From: an uncultured Actinomycetota bacterium
Lineage (GTDB): Bacteria > Actinomycetota > Humimicrobiia > Humimicrobiales > Humimicrobiaceae
Direction: 5' to 3'
Length of the DNA stretch: 64,000 nt
Assembly: GCA_964481885.1 (NCBI GenBank)
Contig: CAYZUS010000009.1
Coordinates: 4,576 to 68,575 of the forward strand
Part shown: in pieces, positions 12,644 through 48,941 of the stretch
How the letters are laid out: every line of letters starts with the position of its first letter
How positions within the stretch are numbered: position 1 is the first letter of the stretch
Notes under the pieces: model-generated
Seen by the model: only the letters and a program-made list of their open reading frames with translations
Database searches by the model: none
What the model was told of the DNA's origin: nothing
Translations under genes and position numbers: made by a program

Positions 12644-12739
12644 GCAATATTTGGCAACAAAAAACACATAAAGCCTTTTATAGCCCGGGATATTTAAATG
12701 GAAAGAATATATGTCCTGAAAGCAGTGTCTTTATGATTT

Positions 12740-13441: not shown

Positions 13442-13538
13442 TTTGGTAAAAATTCATTTCCTGATTATTAACTGTTGCGCCAAAATAAAAAAACAGCGAG
13501 CGAACCTGATTTCTAGATAGTCAGAGTATAGCAGTAAA

Positions 13539-17317: not shown

Positions 17318-17500
17318 TTTTTCTACCTCCATAGAGTTATTGTTTTTTTGTTTTTTACGTTACTGTGCCTATTTAATATATAAGAATATTATTATGATAA
17401 TGTGATGAAATATTAAAGTTCTGTAAATTTTTTTTATTTTTACTTAAAGAATAATACCCCTTTTTAAAACTGCTGCTGAAATTATTTCAGGATATAAGCT

Positions 17501-18556: not shown

Positions 18557-19363
18557 ATGTTAAGCGAAGACGAAAAATTGATATTCAGCGACGGAGAAAG
18601 AACAATATTTAATGACGGAGAAAAAACAATATTTAACGAGGTTCAAAGAAAGATGTTTGGTGCGTTGGACAGAACAGTTTTTGGCGAAGTTGAAAGAACC
18701 GTTTTTGGCGAAGTTAACAAAACCGTTTTTACTGAAACTAAGAAACCTGTTTTTACGGAAACCATAACTCCAGTTTTTACGGAACACATAACTCCAGTTT
18801 TTACTGAAACCGCAATTGCTGATCCTTCAAAAGTTAAAGTGCTCTTAACTATTGTAGGAGAGTCTGCATCAATTGATGGAATATTTAAAGTATCTAACTC
18901 ATTGGAAATAGACTGCGAAGTAAAGGGCGTCCTGGAAGTTGACGGAAAGCTCAAGATACAAAAAAATGGTCGTGTCAATGCTGATGTGACAACCGTAGAT
19001 GCTGAAATAATCGGCAAATATGAAGGAAATATGGTAGCCAGCGGAACTGTTATTATAAACGAAACTGGTGTTTTAAGCGGAAATGTCAGGACCGATTCCC
19101 TGATTATTAATAAGGGCGGAGTATTCTCAGGAACTGTGGTAAGAATCAATGAACTAAGCGATGACAAATCAATAATTATGTTAAAAAAGGTTTTTGCTCT
19201 GGAGGAAGCAAAGAAAAAATCACAGGTGGTTTCTGTGTTGGTTAACCCTCTGTTAAAAAATGCAGTATCCGGCAATAATGGCGGAAAAAATAATGGCGGC
19301 AACAATAATGGCGGAAAAAATAATGGCGGAAAAAGCAGTGCAAATGTTTTGTTGTATCAATAA
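18557..19363 (+). CDS. Bactofilin paralogue with repetitive N- and C-terminal tails
   Basis: Start at 18557, preceded by AAAGGAG (the ORF opens at 18506). The N-terminus has about nine tandem 8-9-aa repeats (xT[IV]F[NGT][DE]xx). The central bactofilin core is …KVLLTIVGESASIDGIFKVSNSLEIDCEVKGVLEVDGKLKIQKNGRVNADV…. The C-terminus has NNGGK repeats. Confidence 0.75.
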   Translation: MLSEDEKLIFSDGERTIFNDGEKTIFNEVQRKMFGALDRTVFGEVERTVFGEVNKTVFTETKKPVFTETITPVFTEHITPVFTETAIADPSKVKVLLTIVGESASIDGIFKVSNSLEIDCEVKGVLEVDGKLKIQKNGRVNADVTTVDAEIIGKYEGNMVASGTVIINETGVLSGNVRTDSLIINKGGVFSGTVVRINELSDDKSIIMLKKVFALEEAKKKSQVVSVLVNPLLKNAVSGNNGGKNNGGNNNGGKNNGGKSSANVLLYQ

Positions 19364-20663: not shown

Positions 20664-21290
20664 ATGAAAATATACAAGTCAAAAATAGATAAAACGATTA
20701 CCACAAGATTTCTTTCATTGATAATGGCCGTACTTATGACTGCTGCATTTCTCTTAATGACAGAAGTGAAACTAAACGATACAGACATATTCTTTAATCC
20801 TATAAGTGTCCTGGGCTCCTCAGAAATAACAAAACTGGAGACTGCAGGAGTTTTGAAGAACATCAACGCAACTGTTACAGACGCCAAGGTGGATTTTAGC
20901 GAATATGAAATTAGCATTTTAAATCTAATTAATTCCAAAAGAAATGAAAACGGGCTGGCTTCTCTAAAGGAAAACCAGATCCTGACAGATGTATCAAGAA
21001 TCAGAAGCAATGACATGTTGAACAGGGATTATTTTTCGCACTATACTCCTGAAGGAACTACAGTATTTAATATATTAAGATCATATGGTGTTAAATGGAA
21101 ACTGGCAGGAGAAAATCTTGCTTTTTCCGAACCGGCAAACCTTGGTTCACCGGAAGCCTTTATGGATGCCTGGATGAATAGCCCGGGGCACGCTGAAAAT
21201 ATTCTAAGAAGTTCATTTAAAGTTATTGGTATAGGCATGACTGAAAATGGCGATAAGAGGGTTGTAACTACAGTTTTCAAGACACAGTAG
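20664..21290 (+). CDS. CAP/SCP (PR-1-like, YkwD-type) domain secreted protein
   Basis: N-terminal TM/signal segment. C-terminal CAP signature (…FSHYTPEGTT…GENLAF…PEAFMDAWMNSPGHAENIL…FKVIGIG…). Confidence 0.8.
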   Translation: MKIYKSKIDKTITTRFLSLIMAVLMTAAFLLMTEVKLNDTDIFFNPISVLGSSEITKLETAGVLKNINATVTDAKVDFSEYEISILNLINSKRNENGLASLKENQILTDVSRIRSNDMLNRDYFSHYTPEGTTVFNILRSYGVKWKLAGENLAFSEPANLGSPEAFMDAWMNSPGHAENILRSSFKVIGIGMTENGDKRVVTTVFKTQ

Positions 21291-34661: not shown

Positions 34662-37640
34662 TCACTTTGACAATATTTCTATTGCCTTGTCAACCAGCCG
34701 AGGATCAAACTGGGTGCCGGCGCATCTTTTAAGCTCTGCGATTGCGTCTTCCCTGCTCATTGCCGGCTTATACACCCGACCGCTTGTCATGACATCGTAA
34801 GCATCGACAATAAGTATAATTCGGGAAATAACAGGTATGGAATCTCCGCTTATTCCCAGTGGATAACCACTGCCATCGAAGTTTTCGTGGCAGGAAAGAA
34901 TGCTCTTGGCAATATGGGAAATCTGCTGTGAGGACTGGGCAATATTATACCCTATCTCAGGATGCCTTTTTATAACTGCCCATTCTTTTTCAGTTAACTT
35001 GCCTTTTTTAAGCAGTATCTTTTCAGGGATGGCAACTTTGCCTATGTCATGAAGTGATGCAAGAAGTGCAAGCTCATCTAATTGATGGGCGGGCAATTTG
35101 ATTGATTTTCCCAGTTTTGTTGCAAAATCATGCATCCTGTCAGCATGCTCCTTGGTTTCGTTGCTTTTTTCATAAAGAGCCTGTTCGAGGGCAAAAATAA
35201 TCGAGCTTGTCAGGCTTTCTTTCTGGGCAAGTTTATTTTTATACATATTGCTTTCCGCATCTATGACAACTGTCTGTATATCCTCATCAGGTCTTTCTTT
35301 TCTTGAAGTACCAATAGAGATACTTACAGGGATCTTTTGGCTGTTTGTCTTGGCACATTCCTTTTTTATCATTCCCACAATCTCTTCAGTATCTGAAATG
35401 GCAGTTTCAGGCAGCAGCAATACAAATTCATCTCCGCCCCAGTGGGCAAGTATGTCGTCAGGGCGGCATACTTTTTTGAATATTTCCGCAGTCTTTTTTA
35501 GTAACTTGTCCCCCTCGGTATGGCCAAAAACATCATTTATTATCTTAAGGCCATTTAAATCACACATTATAAAGCTAATAGGAAGATGTCTTTCTGTATC
35601 AAGTCTTTTTAATTCTTCCTCAAAAAACCTGCGGTTATACAGTCCTGTCATATAGTCATGAAAACCCAAATAGATAATTTCGTCCTCTGCTTTTTTACGT
35701 TCGGTGATATCATTAATACTGGACAGAATAAATGCTTCACTATTGATATGGATGATTTGTGCAGAGAATAGACAAATTATGACTTCTCCATTCTTTTTTC
35801 TAAACTGAAACTCCTTGTCTTTGACTTCAGTACCCTCTTTAAGTGCAGATACCACCATCTCACGGTTTTCATTGTTTACCCACATGTTAAGACTTATTGA
35901 TGAATCAGCAATGGCCTCTTCCCCGGTAAAACCGGAAATAGACGCAAAAGCGTCATTGACTTCAATGAATTTTCCATCTTTTACACTAGTAATGGTGATG
36001 GCATAAGACGAAGTCTTAAAAGCCTTGGAAAACTTCTCGGCACTCTCCCGCAAGGCTTCCTCAGCTTTTTTACGCTTGTTAATGTCAGCGTGTGTTCCAC
36101 TCATCCATAGTGGTTTTTCGTCAGGGGTCCGGGAAATTACTTTTCCCCTGTCATGTACCCAAACCCAGCTTCCATCTTTATGCCTCATTCGGCATTCGAC
36201 GTCATAATAATCTATTTCCTCTGAAAAAACCTTACCCAGCTGCTCATTGGATTTATTAATATCATCGGGATGCGCAAATCTCTCCCATGTCTCTATACTG
36301 ACAGGTGATATTTCAGCGAGCTTATATCCTATAATCTCGGCCCATCGGTCACTAAATACTGTTTCTCCGGTCTGAACGTTCCATTCCCATGTCCCCACAT
36401 TAGTGCCTTCAAGGATATTTACCAATCTAACATTGAGATTATTCAGCTTGAGTTCAGCCGCCTTTTTTAAAGACAGTTGGAGAAGCAGAAAGATGATCAG
36501 CAGCGTTTCGGAGATAATGAAAACTATCGCAGTAATAATCTGCCATTTATATAAATCCCAGGTACTCAGATTTTTGTTAATTACAATGCTCCCGGCAGGA
36601 AGGTCCGCTTCTTTAATTCCCCACCTCTTCATTTCATTCCAGTCAAAATAGTTTTTGTTTTTGCTGGTTACGGCCTGAATTTCAGATGGTTTTTTTCCGC
36701 TTAATATCTGAAGAGCTATCCCTGAAGCATTTTCACTGATGTCTGCATAACTTATCAGATTTCCCCCCAGAATACCCTTGCCTATAAATGTATCGTACAT
36801 CCCATATATTGGCGCCCTGGATACCTTGCTTAACTGCAACACAACTTCCAGCGGAATAAAAGCTTTTCCTTCGCCATCCATATTAAATGAAACAAAAAAC
36901 ACTGCGGTCCGGGCCGGTAGTGAGGCCAATTTCTTTTGTACCTCATCGATACTAAAATCTTCAAGCAAAGTGACTTTAATTTTTTGAGTATATTCCTGGA
37001 GAGCATTTTTTGCTGCATCTTTGTAAAACAGATCCTGTTTGCTTGTCCCTGTGATAACAACGATTTCTTCTACGTCCGGCTGCACTTTCAGGATGATCTC
37101 TATGTTACTTTTTATATCCAGGCTTTTAAAGTTGCCCGTTACATTTGACTTTAAGTCCGCAGCTTTCAGCTTTCCCTCAGTAATACTGCAAAAGACAAAA
37201 GGAAGTCCGGGGAACAACTCATCCCCATATTGAGCAATAAAATCCCAGGATATATCGTCCATAACCATTACCAGATCCAGGTCATACCCGGAGTATTTTT
37301 CCTTCAGCAATTCCATCGTCATTTTTTGAATGGATTCCGATTTAAACCGGTTTACTTCAAGATATTCGCTGTAAAGAGAAATCGAAAAAATGTCAGAATT
37401 TTTCAGGATTTTTGAGATTGTTTGCTCCATTATCATATTGACGGGAAGGAATTGGTTATCGCTATAGAGCAGAAGTACTTTTTTTGGAATCTTTTCGGTC
37501 CTTGCGAAAATAGAAGCGACTGAAAAATGGAATAAAATGGCAAGAAGCAGAAACGCCCCTAGAAATATTGCCGAAAGCTTGATTGCTTTTTTTATTGCCA
37601 TCTCTGTATTTTCCTCGACTCTTATCCTACCCTGCTTCAA
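34662..37640 (-). CDS. Membrane sensor with a periplasmic solute-binding-like domain, PAS domains, a GGDEF domain and an HD-GYP domain
   Basis: N-terminal TM, an extracytoplasmic domain of about 300 aa and a second TM. PAS/PAC repeats follow. GGDEF motif (…FGHTEGDKLL…HWGGDEFVLLL). HD-GYP motif (…HADRMHDFA…LHDIGKVAIP…HENFDGSGYPLG…). Confidence 0.85.
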   Translation of the reverse strand: MKQGRIRVEENTEMAIKKAIKLSAIFLGAFLLLAILFHFSVASIFARTEKIPKKVLLLYSDNQFLPVNMIMEQTISKILKNSDIFSISLYSEYLEVNRFKSESIQKMTMELLKEKYSGYDLDLVMVMDDISWDFIAQYGDELFPGLPFVFCSITEGKLKAADLKSNVTGNFKSLDIKSNIEIILKVQPDVEEIVVITGTSKQDLFYKDAAKNALQEYTQKIKVTLLEDFSIDEVQKKLASLPARTAVFFVSFNMDGEGKAFIPLEVVLQLSKVSRAPIYGMYDTFIGKGILGGNLISYADISENASGIALQILSGKKPSEIQAVTSKNKNYFDWNEMKRWGIKEADLPAGSIVINKNLSTWDLYKWQIITAIVFIISETLLIIFLLLQLSLKKAAELKLNNLNVRLVNILEGTNVGTWEWNVQTGETVFSDRWAEIIGYKLAEISPVSIETWERFAHPDDINKSNEQLGKVFSEEIDYYDVECRMRHKDGSWVWVHDRGKVISRTPDEKPLWMSGTHADINKRKKAEEALRESAEKFSKAFKTSSYAITITSVKDGKFIEVNDAFASISGFTGEEAIADSSISLNMWVNNENREMVVSALKEGTEVKDKEFQFRKKNGEVIICLFSAQIIHINSEAFILSSINDITERKKAEDEIIYLGFHDYMTGLYNRRFFEEELKRLDTERHLPISFIMCDLNGLKIINDVFGHTEGDKLLKKTAEIFKKVCRPDDILAHWGGDEFVLLLPETAISDTEEIVGMIKKECAKTNSQKIPVSISIGTSRKERPDEDIQTVVIDAESNMYKNKLAQKESLTSSIIFALEQALYEKSNETKEHADRMHDFATKLGKSIKLPAHQLDELALLASLHDIGKVAIPEKILLKKGKLTEKEWAVIKRHPEIGYNIAQSSQQISHIAKSILSCHENFDGSGYPLGISGDSIPVISRIILIVDAYDVMTSGRVYKPAMSREDAIAELKRCAGTQFDPRLVDKAIEILSK

Positions 37641-38116
37641 ATGCCCGGCCAGATTATTGACTCTTATAAAAATCCAGCTAGTATTGTTTGTACAGCTTTG
37701 ACATCATGCCCTAATATAGGAGTGCGTATTCTAAACTTTCAGAGCATGCTTTAAGATTCAAGTTTTAAGAGTACGCTTTAAGCTTTCAAAATTTCCCGAA
37801 GCCAAGTAATTCCATACGCAGATTATATCATATAAAATGTGTAAGTTATATTATATATATATTATATATATAATATACACTATACACATCCAAAAATTTC
37901 CAGTTTTAAATAGCAGTTTTACAATCGATGTTCCCAGTTTTATTGATTCTTTATATTCCAAATATATTAATATTTTATTTTAGTATAAAATTTAATAATT
38001 TTTTAGTCAAATTATTTAAAAAAGTATTAAAAAAGTTTTATTAATAATTAAAAACCTTGCAAATAAATTATTAACTGATAGCACAAAAAAATAAAACATT
38101 GGCTATGGACCGATTA

Positions 38117-39433
38117 TTATTTCAGGTATTTCTCGATATTTGCGATATGTTCTTCATAAGTTTTGGCAGGATGAATTTGCCTCTCGCTGTCATGCAGGTA
38201 GTAAAAGTATTCGCTCTTTGTTGGGTTAATTATTGAAGCAATTGCTGCCAGTCCGGGGCTGCAGATTGGAGTCGGCGGCCTGCCCTTGTAAAGATAAGTG
38301 TTGTAGGGCGAGTCAAATTTATAATCCTCAACCTTTATAACGGGCCACCAGTTTCCGGGCTTTCCCAAAGCATACTGGATGGTTGCGTCTATCTCAAAAT
38401 TCATGTCTATCAGCCACCTGTTCCAGATTATGCCCGCAATCAGGGGCATTTCCTCTTCACTGGCCGCCTCTCTTTGGACAATGGATGCAAGAACAATCAG
38501 TGTGTCATTTAGAATGTTATTTTCTGTTGCTTCTGCAAAAAGACCCGCTGTTTTTTCATTAAACAGGTTTTCCATTCTTTTTGTGGTATCTTTTCCTGTA
38601 TAATCCAGATTAAGAAGGTAGGTATCAGGGAATAGGTAGCCTTCTTTGCTGCTGTTAAGAAATTCTGATTTTACTTCATTTGGCCAACCGAGATTTTCCT
38701 GAAGCTTTTCAGCTATTTCTGCTGCTCTTAGTCCTTCCGGTATTACGACCCATTTCTGGTATGGCTTATTGGCAAGGGTATCTGCTAATTGCCAGGCATT
38801 CATTGCCTTTGAAACATTGTATCCGCCAGGCTGAATCTTCTCCTGCCATCCTTCACTTTTTAAAACAAACCCAAATGCCCATTCGTTCCTTATATAACCC
38901 TGTTCTTTTAATTTGGCAATAAGCTCTGTTTCAGTGGTGGCCAGATTTATGACAATTAGTTCTTCCGCAGCAGTCTTTTGGGGAGATGAGAACCGGTAAC
39001 CGGAAGCAAAAATATCAGTATTTCCCTGAGATATCCTCCTGCTGACTTTTTCAAATAAAGCAGGGACTTCTTCAACGGTGTATTTTCCTTCAACTTCCTT
39101 TAATGCCTCTTCTGTTTTGAGTGCGACCAATGCTTCTTCCATGAGCTGATTCTGCCTGGTAAGGATCTTATACTTGTCATTTATACCCCCTGCGTCATAA
39201 AGCTCCGCAAAAGTTTTTCCGTCTTTTTTGAATTCCTGGTTTAAAGTTTCTTCAATTTGCGATATGGCCTCATATGCCCGGGCATTGCTTTCATCTTCAG
39301 TCATTTTATAAAGCAGGACGGTCCACCTGGAAGCCTGCTGGTCAATGTCTGCCTGAGTTGTTGTCCGGCAGCCAGTAAAAACAAGAACCAAAGCCAGAAA
39401 TATTAATATTACCGGTAAAACTTTATTTTTCAT
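38117..39433 (-). CDS. mltG: Endolytic murein transglycosylase MltG (YceG family)
   Basis: Start set at MKNKVLPVILIFLALVLVFTGC, a lipoprotein-type signal. The ORF opens at 39580, but that extension lacks support. C-terminal YceG signature (…SIVQREAA…GIIWNR…PYNTYLYKGRPPTPI…). Confidence 0.85.
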   Translation of the reverse strand: MKNKVLPVILIFLALVLVFTGCRTTTQADIDQQASRWTVLLYKMTEDESNARAYEAISQIEETLNQEFKKDGKTFAELYDAGGINDKYKILTRQNQLMEEALVALKTEEALKEVEGKYTVEEVPALFEKVSRRISQGNTDIFASGYRFSSPQKTAAEELIVINLATTETELIAKLKEQGYIRNEWAFGFVLKSEGWQEKIQPGGYNVSKAMNAWQLADTLANKPYQKWVVIPEGLRAAEIAEKLQENLGWPNEVKSEFLNSSKEGYLFPDTYLLNLDYTGKDTTKRMENLFNEKTAGLFAEATENNILNDTLIVLASIVQREAASEEEMPLIAGIIWNRWLIDMNFEIDATIQYALGKPGNWWPVIKVEDYKFDSPYNTYLYKGRPPTPICSPGLAAIASIINPTKSEYFYYLHDSERQIHPAKTYEEHIANIEKYLK

Positions 39434-39616
39434 TTTTATAACCATTCCCTTAAAGGCACGAAATAATGATGAAAAGCATTTTCTTTTTAGACTTTTAACT
39501 TGCAAGGGAGAATTTATTTTATTTTTTCCTTTTGTCCGGAAAATTTTACCACTAAAAAGCAATTTATAAAAACCTTCCAAAGGCTTTTATACAATTTTCA
39601 GATACTATATTTTACT

Positions 39617-39858: not shown

Positions 39859-40467
39859 TTACCTGCTCATGACTTCCAGTGAATAGTCTGCTGCCAAATC
39901 CTGTGCAATCGACATGCTGTCCGGCTTTTTTCCCTGTTCCTTCTTTTTATTTTTTCCATCCGCCCTGCTCTCACCGCTATCTGTTTTATCTGTGCATTCT
40001 TCGCCAGTTATTCTTTCCGGCCTGCCCTCTAAGCTATTCTCTCCATTTGTCCTGCCTTCATAGTTATTTGTTCCGTTCGGTCTTCCTTCATTATTGTTTG
40101 CTGCGTTTATTCTTCCTTCATAATTATTTGCTTTGTTAAACTCAAGGCTTAGTGCGGCCACATCTGCCGTGATGTTTACAATATTGTATTTTTTGCCATC
40201 CTTGTTTTCCCAGCTCCTTAAGTTCAAATGCCCGCCTACCATTATCCTGTCGCCTTTCTTTAAAGAGCCGGCACAGTTTTCAGCAAGATGATTCCAAACA
40301 GTAATGTTAAAAAAATCCACAACGCTGTTTTCATCACCATTTGCGTCCTTCCACCTTTTGTTTACAGCCAGGCCCATTTCTGTGATGGCCATACCCTCAT
40401 TTGTGTATCTTAATTCCGGATCCCTTGTTAAATTTCCAAGTAAATAGATTTGATTTAAATTAGCCAA
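39859..40467 (-). CDS. ssb: Single-stranded DNA-binding protein with a non-canonical C-terminus
   Basis: N-terminal OB fold (MANLNQIYLLGNLTRDPELRYT…FNITVWN…). The linker has 4x NNYEGRxNG repeats. The protein ends …DYSLEVMSR rather than the acidic DDDIPF tip. Confidence 0.8.
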   Translation of the reverse strand: MANLNQIYLLGNLTRDPELRYTNEGMAITEMGLAVNKRWKDANGDENSVVDFFNITVWNHLAENCAGSLKKGDRIMVGGHLNLRSWENKDGKKYNIVNITADVAALSLEFNKANNYEGRINAANNNEGRPNGTNNYEGRTNGENSLEGRPERITGEECTDKTDSGESRADGKNKKKEQGKKPDSMSIAQDLAADYSLEVMSR

Positions 40468-40512: not shown

Positions 40513-40956
40513 TCAGTACCCGAACCTGTAGGACTTGCATAGTCCCAGGGACTCGTCCCAGGGATATACTACTGCTGCTTTTGAAGAAGAAATGATTTCG
40601 CAACTTTTAAAACCTGCAAACTTTAAGAAAGCAAACCCAACTTCTTTTTTTGCAGATACAGTTGCTTTATCATAGCCGATATAAACTTCTGCCAGGCTGC
40701 AATTATTTTGTTCTACAATTCTTTTTGCCAGACTTTCTGCTGAATCAACTTCAAAAAAAAGCAGGTTTTGTGATACTGCAAGGGCCGCCGAATCTGCAGC
40801 TTTTTTTGTTTCTGACCTGGCTATAAAAATTCTGCAAAAGTCACTCAGCACTAAAAAAACAAAGGCAAATAATATAATCAGTGCCAACGAAAGAATTGTT
40901 ATATTTCCTCCCTGACTTTTAAATGATAATCTACAATTCCGGTTTAACTTTTGCAT
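40513..40956 (-). CDS. Putative Tad pseudopilin-like protein (TadE/TadF/TadG-like)
   Basis: N-terminal hydrophobic segment (ITILSLALIILFAFVFLVL). It sits immediately after the tadE-like gene in the Tad cluster. Domain assignment is weak. Confidence 0.45.
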   Translation of the reverse strand: MQKLNRNCRLSFKSQGGNITILSLALIILFAFVFLVLSDFCRIFIARSETKKAADSAALAVSQNLLFFEVDSAESLAKRIVEQNNCSLAEVYIGYDKATVSAKKEVGFAFLKFAGFKSCEIISSSKAAVVYPWDESLGLCKSYRFGY

Positions 40957-41405
40957 TCCATCCTCATTACACAGGTGCTTTCAATCAGTAGGTCTCTTTT
41001 TAAGACTTTGCTGATAAAATTAAAAATGCCTGCATTTTTATAGCTGAGTTTCACGGTGAAAAAATCTCCTGTATTCCTTTCTGCCCCGGAAGAAGGATTT
41101 ATACTGAAATTAAGATTCTCAGCATCAAGATTTGAGCAGATATCATAAACCTGCTCCCTGGCCAGATTTTCTGAATTCGTTGTCGAAACAACCCTTGCAG
41201 CTTCAGAAGCAGCATGCTCAAGAACATTCTTTAAGTATGTGCAGAAACCTAACTGCGACACCGCCAGCACAATTATTATAAGCAACGGCAGAACCAGCAC
41301 AAATTCTACAGATGACTGTCCACAGTCAGGTCTTCTACACCATTTATGATTATTTTCTCTGAAATACTTTAGGTATTTATTTAATTTTAATGTTTTTAAT
41401 GTCAT
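40944..41405 (-). CDS. TadE-like pilus assembly protein
   Basis: N-terminal TadE motif GQSSVEFVLVLPLLIIIVLAV. Confidence 0.65.
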   Translation of the reverse strand: MTLKTLKLNKYLKYFRENNHKWCRRPDCGQSSVEFVLVLPLLIIIVLAVSQLGFCTYLKNVLEHAASEAARVVSTTNSENLAREQVYDICSNLDAENLNFSINPSSGAERNTGDFFTVKLSYKNAGIFNFISKVLKRDLLIESTCVMRMECKS

Positions 41406-41613
41406 TTATATCGGTTCTATAAGTTATGTTTTATGTAATTGATCAGTTCCTGCTGATTATTTAAATTTTTGTTGAATTAATTGTTAAAATTCAGATTGAA
41501 AACTTTTCACTCCTGGCTGTTTTAGCCAATTATTCAGCATAAATTTGTTAATTTTGTCAGGACTCAATATTATCAAGTTGAGCCTGCAATGATGTTTAAT
41601 ATAAATAATGACT

Positions 41614-41648
41614 TAGTAGTAGTAATAATAATAATAATAATAATGATG
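41614..41648. repeat. Trinucleotide microsatellite (TAG)2(TAA)7 in the flp-tadE intergenic region
   Basis: ttagtagtagtaataataataataataatgatg. Confidence 0.9.
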
Positions 41649-41758
41649 TGAGGGTCACTTCAATAAACCGGATATTTGTCGTTCGCCTGTCTTTAGCGCG
41701 GCTCATCAGTTTTTACTGCTGCATGCCGGTTTCTTACTGCAGCCCTCCCAACTGTTTT

Positions 41759-41956
41759 TTAGACAAGCCCTGATATTTTACTGAAAACCTTTGAAATAAG
41801 ATCAATTATCATGGGTTTTCCTACTGCAACGAGAACCGCACTTATAATGCCTGCGATAACCAGCACAAGTGCATATTCTATTGTTGACTGTCCACGTGCG
41901 TTTGACAGTTTAAGTTTTTGGCCGATTTTTAAAATTACTGTATTTATCTTAATCAC
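41759..41956 (-). CDS. flp: Flp/Fap family type IVb pilin
   Basis: Prepilin peptidase motif G-QSTIEYALVLVIAG (Flp motif G/xxxxEY) followed by a hydrophobic helix. 65 aa. Confidence 0.8.
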   Translation of the reverse strand: MIKINTVILKIGQKLKLSNARGQSTIEYALVLVIAGIISAVLVAVGKPMIIDLISKVFSKISGLV

Positions 41957-42114
41957 CTCCTTTTTTTTAATTTTAACCGTCTGTAGATCACCTCCTTTTT
42001 TAATTTACTTGCCTGCAAATCACACCTTCTCCTTCTCCTTTTTCTTTAAATTTAATCATCTGCAGGCAGCATTCTTTTTTTTAAATTTTGTTACCTGCAA
42101 ACCACCTCCTTTCC
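41952..42114. promoter_or_regulatory. Four degenerate tandem copies of a leader element, each carrying a Shine-Dalgarno-like GGAGGTGAT (minus-strand sense) plus an A-rich block, upstream of flp
   Basis: Plus-strand units begin atcacctcc at 41952 and 41988, atcacaccttctcc at 42020 and accacctcc at 42101. Each is followed by a T-run and a (g)cctgca(a/g) block. Only the first precedes a start codon. Confidence 0.5.
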
Positions 42115-42146
42115 AACCTTATACAAATAAATATTTAATCGATGAG

Positions 42147-42971
42147 TTAACCAAAGTTTAAATAACTGCCAGCAATCGAAAAAATGAGGGGACCTCCCAC
42201 AAGCAAAATGAATGCAGGAAGTATCAAAAAGACTAATGGAAAAAGCAGGATAACTGAACTTCTCCTGGATGCTGCCTCATGTTTTTGTGTTGCCTCAAAT
42301 CTGATATATTTTGACTGCAGACTTAATAAATCACTGATTGATGAACCATACTTTTCTGCCTGTATAAGAAGAAAAAGAAAATTCCTGAAATTTCCGGGGT
42401 CAGTTAAATTAACCGTATTATTAAAAGCATCTGTCCTGCCTATTCCAAAATCTATTTCCTTTAGGAATTTTTTTAATGCAGCGCAGATGTTTCCATCGTA
42501 TTTTTCAGATACTATTTTTATTGAGTTATAAATATTCTGCCCTGCGAGTGTTGCGATTTGAAGAAGGTCAATTATGTAGGGCAGATCCTTGTTGAATTCT
42601 TTAATTCTTCGCCTGCTTATATAATTTAATATAAAGTCAGGTACAAAAAATCCGGCAGCCGCAGATACTGCTCCGACTAAAACCATAAACATGATATTTT
42701 GCAAAAAAAATAACGAGAAAAAAGCTGCCAGAAAAGCTGCCAGAAACTTGTAGCCTATCAGGATATTCAAACTCCTTGCCAAACCATCACTGCAGTTATC
42801 CCCGATCCATTCTCTTGAACTGTCGGTTAAAAATGCTCTGTCTGCAATTGACTGGTATTTTTTTAAAATCCGGCCATTTAAAAATATCTTTAAAGCTGCT
42901 CCGGTTTTTTCAGCGAACCTGTTAAAAATATTTACATTTTTTTTCGAATATGTCCTTTTTTTATCAATCAC
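42147..42971 (-). CDS. tadC: Tad pilus inner-membrane platform protein TadC (T2SS-F domain)
   Basis: T2SSF-type polytopic membrane protein. It sits next to tadB and overlaps it by 8 nt. Confidence 0.8.
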   Translation of the reverse strand: MIDKKRTYSKKNVNIFNRFAEKTGAALKIFLNGRILKKYQSIADRAFLTDSSREWIGDNCSDGLARSLNILIGYKFLAAFLAAFFSLFFLQNIMFMVLVGAVSAAAGFFVPDFILNYISRRRIKEFNKDLPYIIDLLQIATLAGQNIYNSIKIVSEKYDGNICAALKKFLKEIDFGIGRTDAFNNTVNLTDPGNFRNFLFLLIQAEKYGSSISDLLSLQSKYIRFEATQKHEAASRRSSVILLFPLVFLILPAFILLVGGPLIFSIAGSYLNFG

Positions 42972-43737
42972 TTAAACCAAGCACCTTCCTGATAATAACA
43001 ATACCAGTAATTTCAAGCAGACTGCCCACAATCAGGCAGGCACTACCCGGCCCACCCGCAAAAAACCGGGTTATTGAAGAATTCATAAAAATAAACATGG
43101 CAATAAGTGCCGCCACAGGTAAAAAGCTGATGATATTTCCCGAATACCTGCTTTGAAGCGTCAGGATCTTTACATTTGAAACCAGTTTCCTGTTTTCATT
43201 TAGCGTTTCTATTATTTTTTCAATAATAAAGATAAGATCACCGCCGATTTTATTATTAAGTTTTAGCGCGGTGCTGAAAATCAGGGATTCTTTGTTTGAA
43301 CATTTTGCGGCAAAATTATCAACGGCTTCATCGAAAGAAACATTCATTTCCAGCTCGTCAGACAGAGTTTTAAGATATAATTTTAAAGGCTCTTTTGCCC
43401 AAGCGCAGTATTCCCTGATAATGCTTCTAATAGATCTGCCTGCCCGCAGCATGACAATGGCACTGGAGAGAAACTCCGCGAGCTGGCTGTTGAGCAGGTC
43501 CTTCTTTTTATTTTTTAAAATATAAAAAATCTCTGAAAAAACAAGAAATATGCAGACTGACATGAAGATGCCAAAGATATAGTTTTTAAAAACCATATAA
43601 AAAAATACGTCCAGAAGTAAAAACATTGCGCCTGCCAGAATTCTTTTACTTTTAATGTTTATGCTGTTTAAATAATCTATTATCTTTATCAACAATCTGC
43701 TTTTTCCTTTATCTTTTTTTATTAAAAAAATCGCCAA
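42964..43737 (-). CDS. tadB: Tad pilus inner-membrane platform protein TadB (T2SS-F domain)
   Basis: T2SSF-type membrane protein (…ESLIFSTALKLNNKIGGDL…). It overlaps tadA by 29 nt. Confidence 0.8.
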   Translation of the reverse strand: MAIFLIKKDKGKSRLLIKIIDYLNSINIKSKRILAGAMFLLLDVFFYMVFKNYIFGIFMSVCIFLVFSEIFYILKNKKKDLLNSQLAEFLSSAIVMLRAGRSIRSIIREYCAWAKEPLKLYLKTLSDELEMNVSFDEAVDNFAAKCSNKESLIFSTALKLNNKIGGDLIFIIEKIIETLNENRKLVSNVKILTLQSRYSGNIISFLPVAALIAMFIFMNSSITRFFAGGPGSACLIVGSLLEITGIVIIRKVLGLSD

Positions 43738-45040
43738 TACTGCCTTCTGGAATAAAATTGTATTTATTCTCCACTCCGGCCCTTGAAAAAATGTCCTTTA
43801 CTTCCAGCGTTGCGCTGTTTCCCAGCCTGTTTTGCGGAGTTGAAATGCTGCATATTTTTGCCAGAGTCCTGCAGCCGGTTGCTTTTTTTTCAAGATGTAT
43901 TATCAGATCAACTGCCGAAGCAATTATTCGCCTTGCTGATACCGGGCTTAGATTTACTGCAGATATCAGCAGTAATGTCTCCAGTCTTGAAACAAGGTCA
44001 AAGGGTGAATTGGCATGAAGGGTTGTCATTGAACCCTCGTGCCCGGTATTCATGGCTGCAAGCACATCAATGGCTTCGTTTCCCCTTATTTCGCCGACCA
44101 TGATCCTGTCAGGCCTCATTCGAAGGGAATTTTTAACAAGACCTCTCAAAGTAATTTCGCCGCGCCCTTCAATATTGGGAGGTCTGCCTTCAAGGCTGAC
44201 AAGATTGGCAGAGTTTATATTAAGCTCAGGAGTTTCTTCAATGGTTATTATCCTTTCGCCTGCCGGAATAAAACTGGAAAGTACATTTAAGAAAGTGGTT
44301 TTACCTGTTGAGGTTGCCCCTGATACTATAATATTGAATTTTCTTTTCACGCATTCTTTTAAAAACTCAGAGATTTCCACGCTTAATGTATTTGCCCTAA
44401 CAAGGTCCTCCATGTCCAGGAGGTTTTTTCTGAATTTTCTGATGGTAACAACAACATTATTTACCGATGCCGGAGATATAACCATGTTTAGCCTCGAACC
44501 GTCAGCCAGCCTTGCGTCAACCATGGGGCAGCTTTCATCTATCCTGAGGCCAATGGAGCTGATTATTTTTTCAAAAACATTTCTTATGTGATGACAGTCC
44601 CTGAATGAAACGTTTGTCTTTTTTAATGTCCCTTCAAACTCTACAAAAACCTCGTTCCAATTGTTAATCATGATTTCTGTTACACGGTTGTCCTTCATAA
44701 GACAGCTTACCGGCCCAAATTCAAAAGCGTCTTCGTATATTTTTCTTACAATATCTGAAATTCTTTTGTCATTTATAATAAGCTTGTCCTCTTCAGTGAT
44801 TTTTTTAACTGCGGTATTTATAAATTCATATTTCCTGCCGGAAGGCATGCCCATCATTTCATTTATATCAGCCGTCTGAATAATCTTTTTGGCAACATAA
44901 TCCGAAACACTGTCACTGTAACTGCTATTGCTGCTATCATTGCTGCTGACATGGTTTCCGTCATTGCTGCCGCCATGAAGGTTGCTTTGGCTTTTTTCAT
45001 CTGTCATGCCCATACTGGTATTTTTATCTGAATGGTTCAT
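43709..45040 (-). CDS. tadA: Tad/Flp pilus secretion ATPase TadA/CpaF
   Basis: Walker A (VSGATSTGKTTFLN). Asp box, Walker B and His box (…TLHANS…) of the VirB11/CpaF family. The N-terminus has an S/N/D-rich low-complexity tail. Confidence 0.9.
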   Translation of the reverse strand: MNHSDKNTSMGMTDEKSQSNLHGGSNDGNHVSSNDSSNSSYSDSVSDYVAKKIIQTADINEMMGMPSGRKYEFINTAVKKITEEDKLIINDKRISDIVRKIYEDAFEFGPVSCLMKDNRVTEIMINNWNEVFVEFEGTLKKTNVSFRDCHHIRNVFEKIISSIGLRIDESCPMVDARLADGSRLNMVISPASVNNVVVTIRKFRKNLLDMEDLVRANTLSVEISEFLKECVKRKFNIIVSGATSTGKTTFLNVLSSFIPAGERIITIEETPELNINSANLVSLEGRPPNIEGRGEITLRGLVKNSLRMRPDRIMVGEIRGNEAIDVLAAMNTGHEGSMTTLHANSPFDLVSRLETLLLISAVNLSPVSARRIIASAVDLIIHLEKKATGCRTLAKICSISTPQNRLGNSATLEVKDIFSRAGVENKYNFIPEGSIGDFFNKKR

Positions 45041-45097
45041 TTAAATCCGTGCTTATAATTTATTTTGTAATATTTCCCATAAATTCGTTTTGCGGCC

Positions 45098-45994
45098 TCA
45101 AAATAATTTTTCAAACAGGCTCTCTGCAAAATCACTTATTGCCTTGGTTATCCTTAAGTTGTAATCAAACATGGGAGCCGGACCCCTTGTCAGATACAAA
45201 AGCTCAATATCCCTGTCATATGGTATAAAACTACTCACCGGGGCCTTAAGCATGCTTATAATCCTGGGAGGCGAAATGACGGGCCTTGAGTTAAACTTGT
45301 TTATTACTACCTCAAACCTGGCCGGCATATTTTCAAGGCATAAATTACTGATAATTACTTCCAGGTTGCTTATTGATATTAAATCTGCCTGTGTTACAAG
45401 CACAAACATGTCTGCATACTCCAGGAAATCTATGCTTTTATCCTGAAGAAGATAAAACGGCGCATCAACAATTATCAGGTCAAATAAACCGGAGAGCGAG
45501 TCAAGTAAAATATTAAGATTTTTACCGGTCATCAGGGGAGCTTTTTCAAATTTTAAAGGAGGAAGAACTATATGAAGGCTGTCCTCAAGGCTAATTACAA
45601 GACGCTTTAAAACATTAAAATCAATCTCTTTAAAATCAAACTCAATGTCACCAATGTCTCTTAAATTGCTCTTGAGCGAAAGGTTAAAAAGAAGCCTTGA
45701 ATCTTTTTTGCCACAGTTAAGGTCAGCCAGAAGGATATTTTTGTTTTTACTTTTTGCATAATAAGCAGCAACAGCATTGGAGAGAAAACTGCACCCGCAG
45801 CCGCCTTTACTGCCTGTAAAAAACAGTATTTTTGAATCTTTTTTCGGTGCAGCCAAGTGCATCGCTTTTTCCCGAGGCTGACCGCCAGGCTCACCATTTT
45901 CCGTCCAGTCATCAGCGCCATAATTATCGTCAGGGTAATAATCATGTTCCCCTTTTTTAAACTTTTCTTTTAAAAGTAAATCATTTTCATCCAT
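45098..45994 (-). CDS. TadZ/CpaE-like ParA/MinD-family pilus assembly ATPase
   Basis: Deviant Walker A region (FFTGSKGGCGCSFLSNAVAAYYA). ParA-like fold. Its position between cpaB and tadA matches tadZ. Confidence 0.75.
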   Translation of the reverse strand: MDENDLLLKEKFKKGEHDYYPDDNYGADDWTENGEPGGQPREKAMHLAAPKKDSKILFFTGSKGGCGCSFLSNAVAAYYAKSKNKNILLADLNCGKKDSRLLFNLSLKSNLRDIGDIEFDFKEIDFNVLKRLVISLEDSLHIVLPPLKFEKAPLMTGKNLNILLDSLSGLFDLIIVDAPFYLLQDKSIDFLEYADMFVLVTQADLISISNLEVIISNLCLENMPARFEVVINKFNSRPVISPPRIISMLKAPVSSFIPYDRDIELLYLTRGPAPMFDYNLRITKAISDFAESLFEKLF

Positions 45995-46137
45995 TGCTGT
46001 TTCCCTTCTTTTGGCAACTTAAAAGCTTTTTACAAAATTTGCATTATTTCCAAATTATTTATTCTTAATCTTTTATTCTTTATTTTTTTGCTTTTTCCTT
46101 TTTTACTGCTCATTTTTTTATTTCTTTTTATATTTCC

Positions 46138-46929
46138 TTACTGTTTTTTATAGTTTTCCGGGATGTTTTTTGGGCAAATAGAAAGGTTTATTGTCCCGGT
46201 CTGAAGTGCCAGAAAAACTGTTTCGACTTCCACTGGCTTTAAATATAAAGTAAGGATACAGTTTCCGGATCTAAAACCTTCTGTTGTGCCCGCCCCAAGA
46301 ATGCTGTCAAATGCCGGCAAATCACTACTTTCGCCGGTGTTCTCCTGCCGGCCTGATAAATCTGTCAGATCATTGCCTGACCTTTTGCCGTCTATAAGAA
46401 TTACCTCTTTGCCCCACATAATAGTCCGGCTTGTAATTGAATCTGTTGTTTTTTCAAATAAGGTCGATATCAAATCGACAGTATCACCAACGCTTAACAG
46501 GGATTTCTCGCCATAGTAATTTACAGGAATTGATACTGCTCTTAAGCCTGCCGGTATATAGGAAGAGAAAGCCAGATAGCTTGAGTCCTTTGCACTTTCC
46601 ACACCCTGGATCTTATCGCTTGATATGATCTCTCCCTTTGCTATGTCCAGTGCTGTCGCCTTTCCGGTAATTTCACTGACATCAGTAATAAATTTTTGAT
46701 TAAAAATATTTCCCGGGATGCTTTTTTTCTCAATCATGTCTTTTGTAATCTGAATGCCGGCTTTTATTTCAACTCTGGATGTGTAGATATCCATGTTTCC
46801 ATCAGCATATTGATTTTCATTTTTAGAACCGGCCAAATACCAGTAGATTAGAAATCCTGCAAATACAAGCATAAGTATTATGGCTATAATAAAGATTTTC
46901 TGCCTGATTATCAGGTTTATCCTGTTCAT
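46138..46929 (-). CDS. cpaB: Flp pilus assembly protein CpaB/RcpC
   Basis: N-terminal TM anchor. SAF-like domain (…GKATALDIAKGEIISSDKI…). It is the first gene of the tad cluster. Confidence 0.8.
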   Translation of the reverse strand: MNRINLIIRQKIFIIAIILMLVFAGFLIYWYLAGSKNENQYADGNMDIYTSRVEIKAGIQITKDMIEKKSIPGNIFNQKFITDVSEITGKATALDIAKGEIISSDKIQGVESAKDSSYLAFSSYIPAGLRAVSIPVNYYGEKSLLSVGDTVDLISTLFEKTTDSITSRTIMWGKEVILIDGKRSGNDLTDLSGRQENTGESSDLPAFDSILGAGTTEGFRSGNCILTLYLKPVEVETVFLALQTGTINLSICPKNIPENYKKQ

Positions 46930-47146
46930 GCTCTCTCTGCCCGCCTTAGGTTTTTATTATTGTTGTTTTATATAATAGCATATTTATTTATTTATGCAAA
47001 TGAATAATAAAAATAAATTATAACTTTTTACTGATTTTTATATCAGCAGGTTTAATAAAATATCAGAGCTGTTAAAATTAGAACAATACATAATTAGCCT
47101 TTTAGGATTAAAACTGCAGAGGCATTTTGAACGGAAGGATTTAAAC

Positions 47147-47908
47147 ATGAAACAATGGTATGAGTTATTGTTTGAGAACTACGGCCAGAAATACGATAGT
47201 GAGGTTTTTGCTCAGGGCACAATTGGCGAGTGCGATTTTATTGAAAATGAATTCAGACATGACAAAACGGTAAAAATACTGGATATTGGTTGTGGAACCG
47301 GGAGGCATGCAATTGAATTATCAAAAAGAGGGTATTCTGTTACAGGAATTGATTTATCCGATTCTCTTCTTGCAAAGGCAAGAGAAAAAGCATGCAGGCA
47401 TAGTCTGAAAATTGATTTTCAAAAGCATGATGCCAGAAATTTACCTTTTAATAATGAGTTTGATGCTGCAATAATGCTCTGCGAGGGCGCTTTCCCTCTG
47501 ATGGAAACTGACGAAATGAATTATGAAATACTAAAAAACGCAACAAATTCATTAAAAAGTCGTGGAAAACTGATATTTACAACATTAAATGGGCTTTTTC
47601 CATTGTATCATTCGATTGAAAAATTCTGTGCTTCAGAATCCGAAGAAGGCAATGCCACCTATAAAAGCAATACTTTTGATTTGATGACATTTCGTGACCA
47701 CAACATTACCGAAGTGGAAGATGATTCCGGAAATAAAAAGGAACTTAAATGCAACGAGAGATACTACATCCCCAGTGAAATTTCCTGGCTGTTAAAAACA
47801 CTTGGATATAAAACAATCGACATTTTTGGTGCGAAACTAGGTGTTTTTTCGAGAAATGACAAGCTGAGCACTGAAGATTTTGAAATGTTAGTGGTTGCTG
47901 AAAAATAA
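47147..47908 (+). CDS. Class I SAM-dependent methyltransferase
   Basis: Motif I ILDIGCGTGRHAIELSKRGYSVTGIDLS. Motifs II/III (…DAAIMLCEGAF…). Confidence 0.8.
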   Translation: MKQWYELLFENYGQKYDSEVFAQGTIGECDFIENEFRHDKTVKILDIGCGTGRHAIELSKRGYSVTGIDLSDSLLAKAREKACRHSLKIDFQKHDARNLPFNNEFDAAIMLCEGAFPLMETDEMNYEILKNATNSLKSRGKLIFTTLNGLFPLYHSIEKFCASESEEGNATYKSNTFDLMTFRDHNITEVEDDSGNKKELKCNERYYIPSEISWLLKTLGYKTIDIFGAKLGVFSRNDKLSTEDFEMLVVAEK

Positions 47909-48048
47909 TTGCACTAAGATTAAAGTCTAAAAAGAAATGCTTTTTATTATTTCATGCCTTAAAAGTAATTGTTTCAAATATAAAGTGAGATAAATCAGGA
48001 CCTTTGTGATAATGGCCCAATAGGAAGCTATTAATGAAAAAAGATATT

Positions 48049-48561
48049 TTACACTTTCACTTTTATGGATGACTTCACTAATTGATTTTTTGGGAATAGA
48101 ATTATGTTATTTCCAGTCATTGTCGCAGATTTTACCAGTATTCCTTCAAATCCGGATTCATGAGCAGCCCTGGCTAAGATGTTTGGTAAACCGATTTCAT
48201 CTGATCTGTATACCGTGCCTGCCAAAAGATCATCTTCTGTCAGATCAAGTATTTTTAAGTTTTCCTGTGAAGTTAAATCAAGAATTAAAGAAAAATTTAT
48301 TTCCAGCTCAAACACCTTAAACAAATTTTCAATTATTATTTCATCATCAACCTTTCTCTTTAGTTCTTCAATGCAGACTTTCTTACTTTCGCTAAGATAC
48401 AAAGAATTAAATTCACCTTTTATATGCCATCTGCCGGATACTTTTTCATTGCCTTCTGTGGAAAGAGGGTCATTGTATTGCCTGGCAATTGCCCTGTAGC
48501 AGGTACAATTGATTCCCTTTGGGCTAATACTCTGGAGTTTTTTCTTAAAGTCTTTATCCAA
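48049..48561 (-). CDS. RES-domain toxin of a RES-Xre toxin-antitoxin pair
   Basis: …CYRAI…GRWHIKGEFNSLYLSESKKVCIEEL…GILVKSA…. The Arg, Glu and Ser positions and the spacing fit a RES domain. It lies immediately downstream of a DUF2384/Xre antitoxin gene. Confidence 0.75.
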   Translation of the reverse strand: MDKDFKKKLQSISPKGINCTCYRAIARQYNDPLSTEGNEKVSGRWHIKGEFNSLYLSESKKVCIEELKRKVDDEIIIENLFKVFELEINFSLILDLTSQENLKILDLTEDDLLAGTVYRSDEIGLPNILARAAHESGFEGILVKSATMTGNNIILFPKNQLVKSSIKVKV

Positions 48562-48575
48562 TTGTCAGCGGATTG

Positions 48576-48941
48576 TTAACTGGCTATGCCTAATTTAAAA
48601 CCATTCAGCAGGTCTATTATTTCTTCAAGGCCTTCTTCTGTGCTTTGCGCTGAAATAATTTGCTTTACAGGTGTTCTGCCATTTAAGGACTTATTAGGCT
48701 TATTTAACCATACTGATATTTTACTTTGCGTTCCAAAAACAGCCAGCAGGATTTTGCAAAGCTCATCAATTCTGTCCAGCACAATTCGCGATTGCGTATT
48801 TGGGTTAACGGTTTTTGTTTCCCAGCGGATTACATTACGCTCACTAACACCCGATATTTGCGCAAATACTCTTTGGGTAAAACCCAATGTGCTTCTTAAT
48901 TCTTTTATATCTTTTTCTTTTTCAAGTGCAGATGTAACCAT
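48576..48941 (-). CDS. Xre-family HTH / DUF2384 antitoxin (MbcA/ParS-like)
   Basis: N-terminal HTH (…LGFTQRVFAQISGVSERNVIRWE…). C-terminal DUF2384-like toxin-binding region (…WLNKPNKSLNGRTPVKQI…GLEEIIDLLNGF…). The gap to the RES gene is 14 nt. Confidence 0.75.
   Translation of the reverse strand: MVTSALEKEKDIKELRSTLGFTQRVFAQISGVSERNVIRWETKTVNPNTQSRIVLDRIDELCKILLAVFGTQSKISVWLNKPNKSLNGRTPVKQIISAQSTEEGLEEIIDLLNGFKLGIAS

Follow-up and report, generated by a model that had tools for sequence, protein, structure and literature searches.

The minus strand between positions 46929 and 40513 of the window (the whole stretch of DNA that was analysed, 64 kb in length) carries eight open reading frames (ORFs) of the Tad/Flp type, all of them intact, which succeed one another in the order cpaB, tadZ, tadA/cpaF, tadB, tadC, flp, tadE and tadG-like; both the set of eight genes and this order, in which flp occupies the middle of the locus and not its head, had been proposed in a preliminary description of this DNA and are borne out by the ORF reading. 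The flanks are likewise those named in that description: downstream lie ssb and mltG (YceG), and upstream a methyltransferase gene in divergent orientation. The features of the region, in the direction of reading, are as follows.

46930..47146, minus strand: divergent intergenic region upstream of cpaB, likely the promoter region of the assembly operon, with sigma-70-like matches that are suggestive only
46138..46929, minus strand: cpaB/rcpC homologue, 263 aa, with an N-terminal transmembrane helix, a SAF/beta-clip domain (D1), an RcpC domain (D2) and apparently no C-terminal hairpin
45098..45994, minus strand: tadZ/cpaE-like gene for a ParA/MinD-family protein, 298 aa, a short form, with Walker A KGGCGCS
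43709..45040, minus strand: tadA/cpaF, secretion ATPase, 443 aa, with an intact Walker A (GATSTGKTT) and a His box, both read in the sequence
42964..43737, minus strand: tadB, platform protein, 257 aa as listed, with one T2SSF domain (8.3e-6)
42147..42971, minus strand: tadC, platform protein, 274 aa, with one T2SSF domain (4.9e-13)
41957..42146, minus strand: tadC-flp spacer, in which the flp 5′ end is repeated in tandem about four times, in degenerate form
41759..41956, minus strand: flp, prepilin, 65 aa from a GTG start, predicted to leave a mature pilin of 43 aa after cleavage at G/QSTIEY
41406..41758, minus strand: flp-tadE spacer, with an (ATT)7(ACT)3 run and, at roughly 41545-41615, an island of about 75 nt that is conserved and contains a modest hairpin
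40944..41405, minus strand: tadE, minor pilin, 153 aa (TadE, 2e-13), with the cleavage motif CG/QSSVEF read directly
40513..40956, minus strand: TadG-N/Rv3654c-like pilin-like protein, 147 aa (PF13400 Tad, 1.8e-8; TIGR03816, 5.6e-8, below its cut-off)
39859..40467, minus strand: ssb (SSB, 2.2e-30; TIGR00621, 5e-36), 45 nt downstream of the tadG-like gene

Among the assembly genes, TadA matches T2SSE (5.5e-54), TIGR03819 (9.8e-90) and the CpaF structures 9E24 and 8RKD, these last at around 1e-82 (4e-82). The platform is split between TadB and TadC, whose single T2SSF domains both exceed the gathering score of 25.2 bits; the real start of tadB is probably located a few codons downstream of the one listed, and the protein is 82% identical from residue 7 on to its orthologue in the nearest genome (L001). 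TadZ, for its part, has a position in the locus that fits a Tad system, while its ParA/MinD-type match is weak (Pfam CbiA at 7e-5, 23.2 bits against a cut-off of 25.4; TIGR03815 Ssd at 5.6e-7) and its Walker A is deviant; the best match in the PDB is the ParA-family ATPase 3EA0 (1.1e-12, residues 55-274), in which KGGDGGS aligns with KGGCGCS. Since the ATPase domain only begins at residue 55, this TadZ would be without an N-terminal receiver-like domain.

CpaB is recognized by the Pfam profiles RcpC (2.5e-8) and SAF (2e-5) and by TIGR03177 (1.5e-18). By sequence it finds no match in the PDB, and RcpC was reached by fold search only, the best PDB fold match of its AlphaFold model (mean pLDDT 69) being the RcpC of Pseudomonas aeruginosa (9GZR, E 1e-9). 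The RcpC profile match stops at residue 250 of 263, and the last strand of the model spans residues 246-251; in the P. aeruginosa protein, residues 233-303 form the L3 linker and the C-terminal beta-hairpin that contacts RcpA (PMC12307814). As modeled, CpaB appears to be devoid of the secretin-binding C-terminal hairpin, as it would end just past D2, with no room for a linker and hairpin of the P. aeruginosa type. If so, a monoderm CpaB/RcpC that finishes right after D2 would constitute a natural test of the “alignment complex” ring in a system without a secretin. Secondary sources make conflicting statements about the occurrence of rcpC in Gram-positive tad loci (PMC8467076 vs PMC3244431); its presence is accepted here because it is found in annotated Micrococcaceae plasmids and in nine loci of the present analysis.

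With regard to the pilins, the G/xxxxEY cleavage motif that had been attributed to the pilin is indeed read directly in Flp, as ARG/QSTIEY (ARG/QSTIEYALVLVIAGIISAVLVAV), and the size of the protein is within the range of 50-80 aa for prepilins. The Flp profiles remain under threshold, both Flp_Fap (6.2e-5, 23.1 bits against a gathering score of 32.2) and DUF4244 (1.8e-4, 21.3 bits). More generally, Flp_Fap, CbiA, TIGR03819, TIGR03815, TIGR03816 and TIGR03177 all score below their curated cut-offs, and the proteins concerned are therefore taken to be divergent members of their families.

The compactness of the locus, which had been described as a cluster of overlapping genes with no gaps, is only partially confirmed. 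There are overlaps, restricted to tadA/tadB, tadB/tadC and tadE/tadG, but also spacers of 143 nt (cpaB-tadZ), 57 nt (tadZ-tadA), 190 nt (tadC-flp) and 353 nt (flp-tadE), followed by one of 45 nt between tadG and ssb, in such a way that the two widest spacers in the locus border flp. In three relatives (L086, L087 and L089), a CAP-domain gene on the opposite strand is situated between tadC and flp, and thus flp-tadE-tadG would form a separate transcription unit in them. In the present locus there would probably also be two tandem transcription units, cpaB-tadC and then flp-tadE-tadG, the second possibly running on into ssb. Upstream of cpaB, sigma-70-like matches are found on the minus strand at 47046-47017 (10/12) and 47000-46972; however, the promoter and terminator scans gave match counts no higher than in shuffled sequence, and consequently these matches are suggestive only and no promoter is claimed for flp. 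When the flp-tadE spacer is aligned with those of L001 and L081, a single block is conserved and the rest is divergent. The hairpin of the island has an energy of -12 kcal/mol (z-score -2.4); a terminator or attenuator, or else a tadE promoter, are candidate roles for the island. Rfam gave no match in the spacers around flp, a tRNA-Pro being its sole match in the window.

The preliminary description had also noted the lack of a secretin, of TadD and of a prepilin peptidase. A Pfam scan of approximately 47 ORFs of the window, which took in all those of 100 aa or longer and several smaller ones, found neither Peptidase_A24 nor secretin nor TadD, and in eight related genomes none of the three was found in the 8-10 kb around the locus. 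Neither could a secretin and a peptidase be encoded in the same operon just beyond the window, because the unit is bounded inside it, by the divergent gene upstream and by ssb/mltG downstream. The loss of the secretin is documented in monoderm Tad systems, and a published detection model permits tadV to be away from the locus (PMC6668835), an unlinked tadV being typical of Actinobacteria (PMC4322843, PMC13091076). A TadV-type peptidase is nevertheless to be expected in this organism, given that Flp and TadE both keep canonical G/XXXXE[YF] sites, which make sense only with such an enzyme.

On these grounds, the following mechanism may be proposed. The Flp prepilin would enter the membrane, where an unlinked aspartyl peptidase of the TadV type, encoded outside the window, would cut it after the Gly of the motif; the hexameric TadA/CpaF ATPase would then polymerize the 43-aa mature pilin on the TadB/TadC platform, with TadE and the TadG-N/Rv3654c-like protein acting as minor pilins that prime the filament. 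The short TadZ, ParA/MinD-like and with its deviant Walker A, would position or scaffold the machine, and the membrane-anchored CpaB, as a homologue of the RcpC ‘alignment complex’ ring, would lead the filament across the cell wall. Neither secretin nor TadD would be needed, since there is no outer membrane to be crossed. The output of such a pilus is most likely adhesion or biofilm formation, and possibly DNA uptake.

The layout has clear precedents. In Mycobacterium tuberculosis, the cluster Rv3660c-Rv3654c is arranged in the same way from tadZ up to its final pilin-like gene (the tadG-like gene here being in the position called ‘TadF’ in the nomenclature of that species), has no secretin, and its peptidase is outside the cluster (PMC9531140). 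The best NCBIfam matches of TadA, TadZ and the last protein are TIGR03819, TIGR03815 and TIGR03816, models of the M. tuberculosis-type helicase/secretion neighbourhood, but their equivalog cut-offs are missed (301 vs 373 bits, 29 vs 154 and 33 vs 51, respectively), so that, as judged from these profiles, the three proteins are related to the ‘helicase/secretion neighbourhood’ subfamily but fall outside it. The present locus also differs from that of M. tuberculosis in that cpaB heads it, in its shorter TadZ, and in its neighborhood, with ssb, rex and pur genes in place of the helicase/topA region. The T4cP locus of Bifidobacterium (prototype B. breve UCC2003) likewise consists of two tandem clusters, tadZ-tadA-tadB-tadC and then flp-tadE-tadF; tadV is always outside it, and within the genus it is an ancestral locus passed on by vertical descent (PMC13091076). 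In contrast, no cpaB is reported there, the host belongs to another class, and a role in gut colonization is known there.

The same secretin-less block of cpaB-tadZ(AAA ATPase)-cpaF-tadB-tadC is annotated in a monoderm host in Pseudarthrobacter chlorophenolicus pACHL01 and Arthrobacter sp. pYA7-1b, although in these Micrococcaceae plasmids flp heads the locus (in pACHL01, tadE/tadG too) and the genes are plasmid-borne, unlike here; their TadA is 45-51% identical to the present one and groups with proteobacterial sequences in a neighbor-joining (NJ) tree. Micrococcus luteus tad-1/tad-2 also encode the Flp pilus of an actinobacterium, for which tadV is likewise unlinked and the minor pilins are of the G/XXXXE[FS] type; this pilus serves in DNA uptake (PMC4322843), but there the genes are split between two loci, no tadZ is found in the tad clusters, cpaB/tadZ homologues are located elsewhere (PMC8467076), and no linkage to SSB is reported. 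With the diderm systems, that is, Aggregatibacter flp-rcp-tad, Caulobacter cpa and P. aeruginosa rcp/tad, a core of Flp, TadE-type minor pilins, TadA/CpaF, TadB, TadC, RcpC/CpaB and a probable TadZ is shared; the RcpA secretin, RcpB, TadD and a linked TadV are all missing here, and flp is not at the head. Thus, the non-canonical order put forward as a novelty does not stand as such: order and content match those of published actinobacterial loci (PMC9531140, PMC13091076), and the order is non-canonical only with respect to proteobacterial models, since the Arthrobacter-group plasmids also have the secretin-less cpaB-tadZ-cpaF-tadB-tadC. In other words, the odd-seeming order and the missing secretin and linked peptidase are the usual actinobacterial layout.

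The host, of Gram-positive type, belongs to the actinobacterial class Candidatus Humimicrobiia, and the proposal that a Tad system without a secretin pointed to a monoderm is thereby upheld; the nearest genome, L001, is a MAG of the Candidatus Humimicrobiales, within the monoderm lineage Actinomycetota, with a TadA 85% identical and its lineage checked, and a Rex protein and a LytR-CpsA-Psr enzyme are also encoded in the window. TadA is 85-89% identical to those of L001/L081, 53-63% to those of Actinomycetota MAGs, and 43-51% to those of Proteobacteria; among its best 120 matches every named one is from Actinomycetota, and it groups with Actinomycetota MAGs in an NJ tree that is midpoint-rooted and carries no bootstrap support. 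The locus is conserved in 9/9 related loci, with the same gene order and the same neighbors, down to 53% TadA identity, and every one of its genes is under purifying selection (dN/dS 0.10-0.25). A horizontally acquired island was rejected, as the GC content of the locus equals that of its flanks and the synteny is deep. Also rejected were an archaeal-type (Epd-like) pilus and a Com or T2SS pseudopilus, in view of the split TadB/TadC platform, TadZ, CpaB and the Flp-size pilin. We consider, with a probability of about 0.85, that the locus encodes a functional Tad (type IVc) pilus of actinobacterial type, has been inherited vertically and belongs to a Candidatus Humimicrobiia bacterium. It would then be a block of the core genome and not a mobile “colonisation island”, and the known actinobacterial layout would extend to a basal uncultured class, which has little import beyond annotation.

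A different role could be read in the gene that follows, which raises the alternative that the Tad genes are a competence module whose pilus captures DNA, while the linked SSB coats the incoming single strand in the manner of SsbB. The ssb gene comes after the tadG-like gene on the same strand, at a distance of 30-60 nt, in 9/9 loci, a count that includes two loci chosen from the SSB side, and the interval between the two genes shows no terminator-like site. Its product is without the canonical acidic C-terminal tip (...DDIPF), and none of 120 homologues of the clade ends in ...PF. In M. luteus natural transformation needs Tad pili, and its authors suggest that the same may hold in other Actinobacteria (PMC4322843). 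Against this, the whole region is syntenic out to purB/purL, and the Tad-ssb linkage may simply mirror a stable block of the core genome; the OB domain of SSB is 71-80% identical, compared with 40-60% for the Tad proteins, as expected of an essential protein, and neither comEA nor comEC is present in the 64-kb window. The gene after ssb in the relatives is ychF or DUF951, both of which also adjoin the housekeeping rpsF-ssb operon in Firmicutes, and this points to a housekeeping context as the ancestral one. This alternative is thus unlikely, albeit the best placed of those considered, and the wider idea that the Tad genes and the tipless SSB of Candidatus Humimicrobiia and allied basal Actinomycetota belong together as a conserved module for DNA uptake (competence), in which the SSB would be a dedicated SsbB-like protein and a hairpin-less CpaB ring the conduit through the cell wall, is a slightly longer shot. 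Even so, the constant linkage of Tad to an SSB with no acidic tip would be a cheap lead to Tad-dependent competence outside Micrococcus.

The beginning of flp deserves separate attention, as it could be taken as a sign of decay of the locus in this genome, or of a phase-OFF state, the start codon of its pilin having been lost, with perhaps no peptidase at all, such as in the twelve Bifidobacterium species in which tadV is reported missing (PMC13091076). The ancestral start, 8 codons upstream (41980-41978), is ATG in L001 and L081 and GTG in L082, but ACG here, and an in-frame TAA sits 9 codons further upstream. The only canonical start is the GTG, which directly abuts a ribosome-binding look-alike, and with ACG at the ancestral position the translation of the pilin could therefore be weak. 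Furthermore, a repeat unit made up of the ribosome-binding look-alike GGAGGTGA, a start codon and a KFKKKEV coding stub is duplicated in tandem in the tadC-flp spacer, with a period of 32 (Tandem Repeats Finder), which suggests an unstable region; L001 has a similar array (period 34, 6.4 copies), and in L081 and L082 the flp 5′ end is single-copy. However, the same GTG is the furthest-upstream start in L085 too, where a TAG 3 codons before it leaves no other possible, so that this GTG or a nearby codon may be the genuine start, and the ACG could be an assembly error. Principally, none of the eight ORFs is disrupted, purifying selection acts on all of them, and Flp, with 90-94% identity in close relatives, 77% in L082 and a dN/dS of 0.11, is the best-conserved protein of the locus, all of which makes decay quite improbable and agrees better with a functional actinobacterial Tad locus.

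Finally, a structurally new Tad variant, with a gene order rearranged because assembly would follow another logic, such as one with pilins that need no peptidase, could appeal to the divergence of proteins that score under curated cut-offs, the apparently missing hairpin of CpaB and the window without a peptidase, but it is the most far-fetched of these readings, as order and gene content are those of the published actinobacterial loci (PMC9531140, PMC13091076), tadV is as a rule unlinked in Actinobacteria (PMC4322843), and Flp and TadE retain their canonical sites.

Positions 40513–46929 carry a Tad pilus locus of the ordinary actinobacterial kind, here in a class newly sampled. Its eight open reading frames, all on the minus strand, were assigned by profile search:

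46929–46138, minus strand: CpaB/RcpC, with RcpC and SAF domains (TIGR03177, 1.5e-18)
45994–45098, minus strand: TadZ, ParA/MinD-like
45040–43709, minus strand: TadA/CpaF (T2SSE, 5.5e-54; TIGR03819, 1e-89)
43737–42964, minus strand: TadB, one T2SSF domain
42971–42147, minus strand: TadC, one T2SSF domain
41956–41759, minus strand: Flp prepilin, 65 aa
41405–40944, minus strand: TadE (2e-13)
40956–40513, minus strand: TadG-N/Rv3654c-like protein, 147 aa

Caulobacter CpaF structures match TadA at ~1e-82, and the PDB entry 3EA0 (ParA family) matches TadZ at 1e-12, with the deviant Walker A of TadZ, KGGCGCS, aligning to KGGDGGS; the processing sites of Flp (ARG/QSTIEY) and TadE (CG/QSSVEF) are read straight off the translation. 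The preliminary description, largely correct in its observation and half right in its interpretation, had named ssb/mltG on one side and a methyltransferase on the other, which the profile searches bear out (ssb and mltG/YceG lie downstream, and the methyltransferase gene, upstream, is divergent), but its statement that the cluster has no gaps is wrong: the spacers measure 143 nt (cpaB–tadZ), 57 nt (tadZ–tadA), 190 nt (tadC–flp) and 353 nt (flp–tadE), so flp sits between the two largest.

The reported absence of a secretin, TadD and prepilin peptidase from the locus holds, as the Pfam scan of the ~47 open reading frames covering the 64-kb window found no Peptidase_A24, secretin or TadD; neither an A24 peptidase nor a secretin was found in eight related loci, including L001 (with L081, the closest relative), over 8–10 kb of flank on each side. 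Both ends of the operon lie inside the window, and therefore the contrary case, an operon that runs on to a secretin and peptidase just beyond the window, is excluded. According to Denise et al. (PMC6668835), every Tad adaptation to monoderms came with secretin loss, and their detection model allows tadV to be encoded away from the locus; the tadV gene of Bifidobacterium is “consistently placed outside” the Tad cluster (PMC13091076), and for Angelov et al. (PMC4322843) the lack of tadV in tad loci “seems to be typical” of actinobacteria.

The host is a monoderm actinobacterium, as the missing secretin had been taken to indicate, and this follows from: (i) the best genome match by TadA (85% identical), a Candidatus Humimicrobiales MAG, placed by lineage look-up in the class Candidatus Humimicrobiia, phylum Actinomycetota, kingdom Bacillati; (ii) the named proteins among the top 120 TadA matches, all from Actinomycetota; (iii) a rough NJ tree in which TadA clusters with Actinomycetota sequences, apart from Proteobacteria; (iv) and finally, Rex and a LytR-CpsA-Psr enzyme, also encoded in the window. 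The gene order, initially called non-canonical, deserves that name only when measured by the archetypes of Aggregatibacter and Caulobacter and not by actinobacterial loci, since nothing but cpaB at the head sets it apart from M. tuberculosis and Bifidobacterium, and plasmids from Pseudarthrobacter chlorophenolicus and Arthrobacter sp. carry an annotated cpaB-tadZ-cpaF-tadB-tadC block without secretin. The top NCBIfam matches of three proteins (TIGR03819, TIGR03815 and TIGR03816, models built on the mycobacterial neighbourhood) all fall under the cut-off, which fits a basal, divergent lineage.

In such a pilus, an unlinked TadV would cleave Flp and TadE, and polymerisation would proceed on the TadB/TadC platform, driven by TadA, with the filament primed by TadE and the TadG-like protein; the short TadZ, without a receiver-like domain, would scaffold the machine, and CpaB would form a ring outside the membrane. 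Among PDB structures, the best match to the AlphaFold model of CpaB (mean pLDDT 69) is P. aeruginosa RcpC (9GZR; E 1e-9, both domains), a protein whose residues 233–303 (L3 linker and beta-hairpin) contact the secretin (PMC12307814). The modelled CpaB C-terminus lies 12 residues past the last D2 strand, and a CpaB predicted to be without the L3 linker and beta-hairpin fits a secretin-less system.

A competence (DNA-uptake) function for the locus and its linked SSB, for which Tad-dependent transformation in Micrococcus offers a precedent (PMC4322843), is of low probability. In its favour, ssb (39859–40467, minus strand) follows the Tad locus in nine of nine related loci, two of which were picked from the SSB side, and the clade of this SSB lacks the canonical acidic ...PF tip (0 of 120 homologues), although the OB domain is 71–80% conserved; the SSB of the window has a long repetitive linker of NNYEGR-type repeats and a C-terminus ending in DLAADYSLEVMSR instead of the acidic DDIPF. 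Against it, the ssb of the relatives is adjoined by ychF and DUF951, which, by comparison with the Bacillus region, points to an ancestral housekeeping context. A recently acquired island is ruled out by the conserved neighbourhood, which continues to the methyltransferase, Rex, LytR-CpsA-Psr, PurB and PurL genes, by a GC content matching that of the flanks, and by dN/dS of 0.10–0.25 for all nine genes (against L001). The pilus locus is thus core, vertically inherited and under purifying selection; Flp is its most conserved protein (90–94% identity in close relatives).

Between ssb and the methyltransferase/rex block, 34662–39580 (minus strand) holds mltG/YceG and a 992-aa PAS/GGDEF/HD-GYP/substrate-binding-domain gene; both are without match in L001, L081 and L082 and absent from that interval in the other relatives examined, as if a c-di-GMP signalling gene had been inserted beside the pilus locus in this lineage alone. 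At 47147–48941, a methyltransferase gene and a RES-toxin/Xre-antitoxin pair lie between cpaB and a radical-SAM gene, which in relatives immediately precedes cpaB.

In the clade of the related loci L086, L087 and L089, a CAP (cysteine-rich secretory protein family) gene on the opposite strand (11151–11894, 11328–12071 and 6642–7466, respectively) splits tadC from flp, and therefore flp-tadE-tadG is, judging by gene arrangement, a separate transcription unit there; the CAP-domain gene of the window is elsewhere (20664–21290). The 190-nt tadC–flp spacer of the window probably carries an flp promoter, although a scan for promoter patterns gave no more matches than shuffled sequence did. This spacer (41957–42146, minus strand) consists of ~4 degenerate copies of the flp 5′ end in tandem (period 32), against 6.4 copies in L001 (12773–12990) and one each in L081 and L082; the unit length, 32–34 nt, is not divisible by 3, and every copy has the ribosome-binding look-alike GGAGGTGA. 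As the KKKEV leader codons (AAAAAAAAGGAGGTG) resemble the upstream ribosome-binding site, direct repeats arise at a distance of ~34 nt, an arrangement that would promote slippage during replication. The flp start codon of relatives (ATG in L001 and L081, GTG in L082) is ACG in the window (41978–41980, minus strand), which may reflect an error in the assembly, use of a non-canonical start or reduced translation of the pilin; in frame, the sole canonical start codon is the GTG at 41956, abutting a ribosome-binding look-alike, and since the related locus L085 is likewise restricted, this GTG may be genuine. In the flp–tadE spacer, a ~75-nt island (~41545–41615, minus strand; 13325–13395 in L001, 13270–13340 in L081) is conserved amid divergent sequence and includes a hairpin of modest stability (−12 kcal/mol, z-score −2.4). 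An (ATT)7(ACT)3 microsatellite (~41615–41644) precedes the island; at the corresponding place L001 has a 15-nt repeat in 5.9 copies.

Elsewhere in the window there are four bactofilin genes (3552–4010, 16955–17332, 17637–18014 and 18506–19363), the two 125-aa copies scoring identically against Pfam, a sign that they may have arisen recently by tandem duplication. There is also a dense signalling cluster (4899–16700, minus strand), which encodes a 1035-aa CheB-CheR fusion protein bearing PAS domains, a response regulator of the OmpR type and two ~1000-aa hybrid histidine kinases that contain PAS/GAF as well as Hpt domains.
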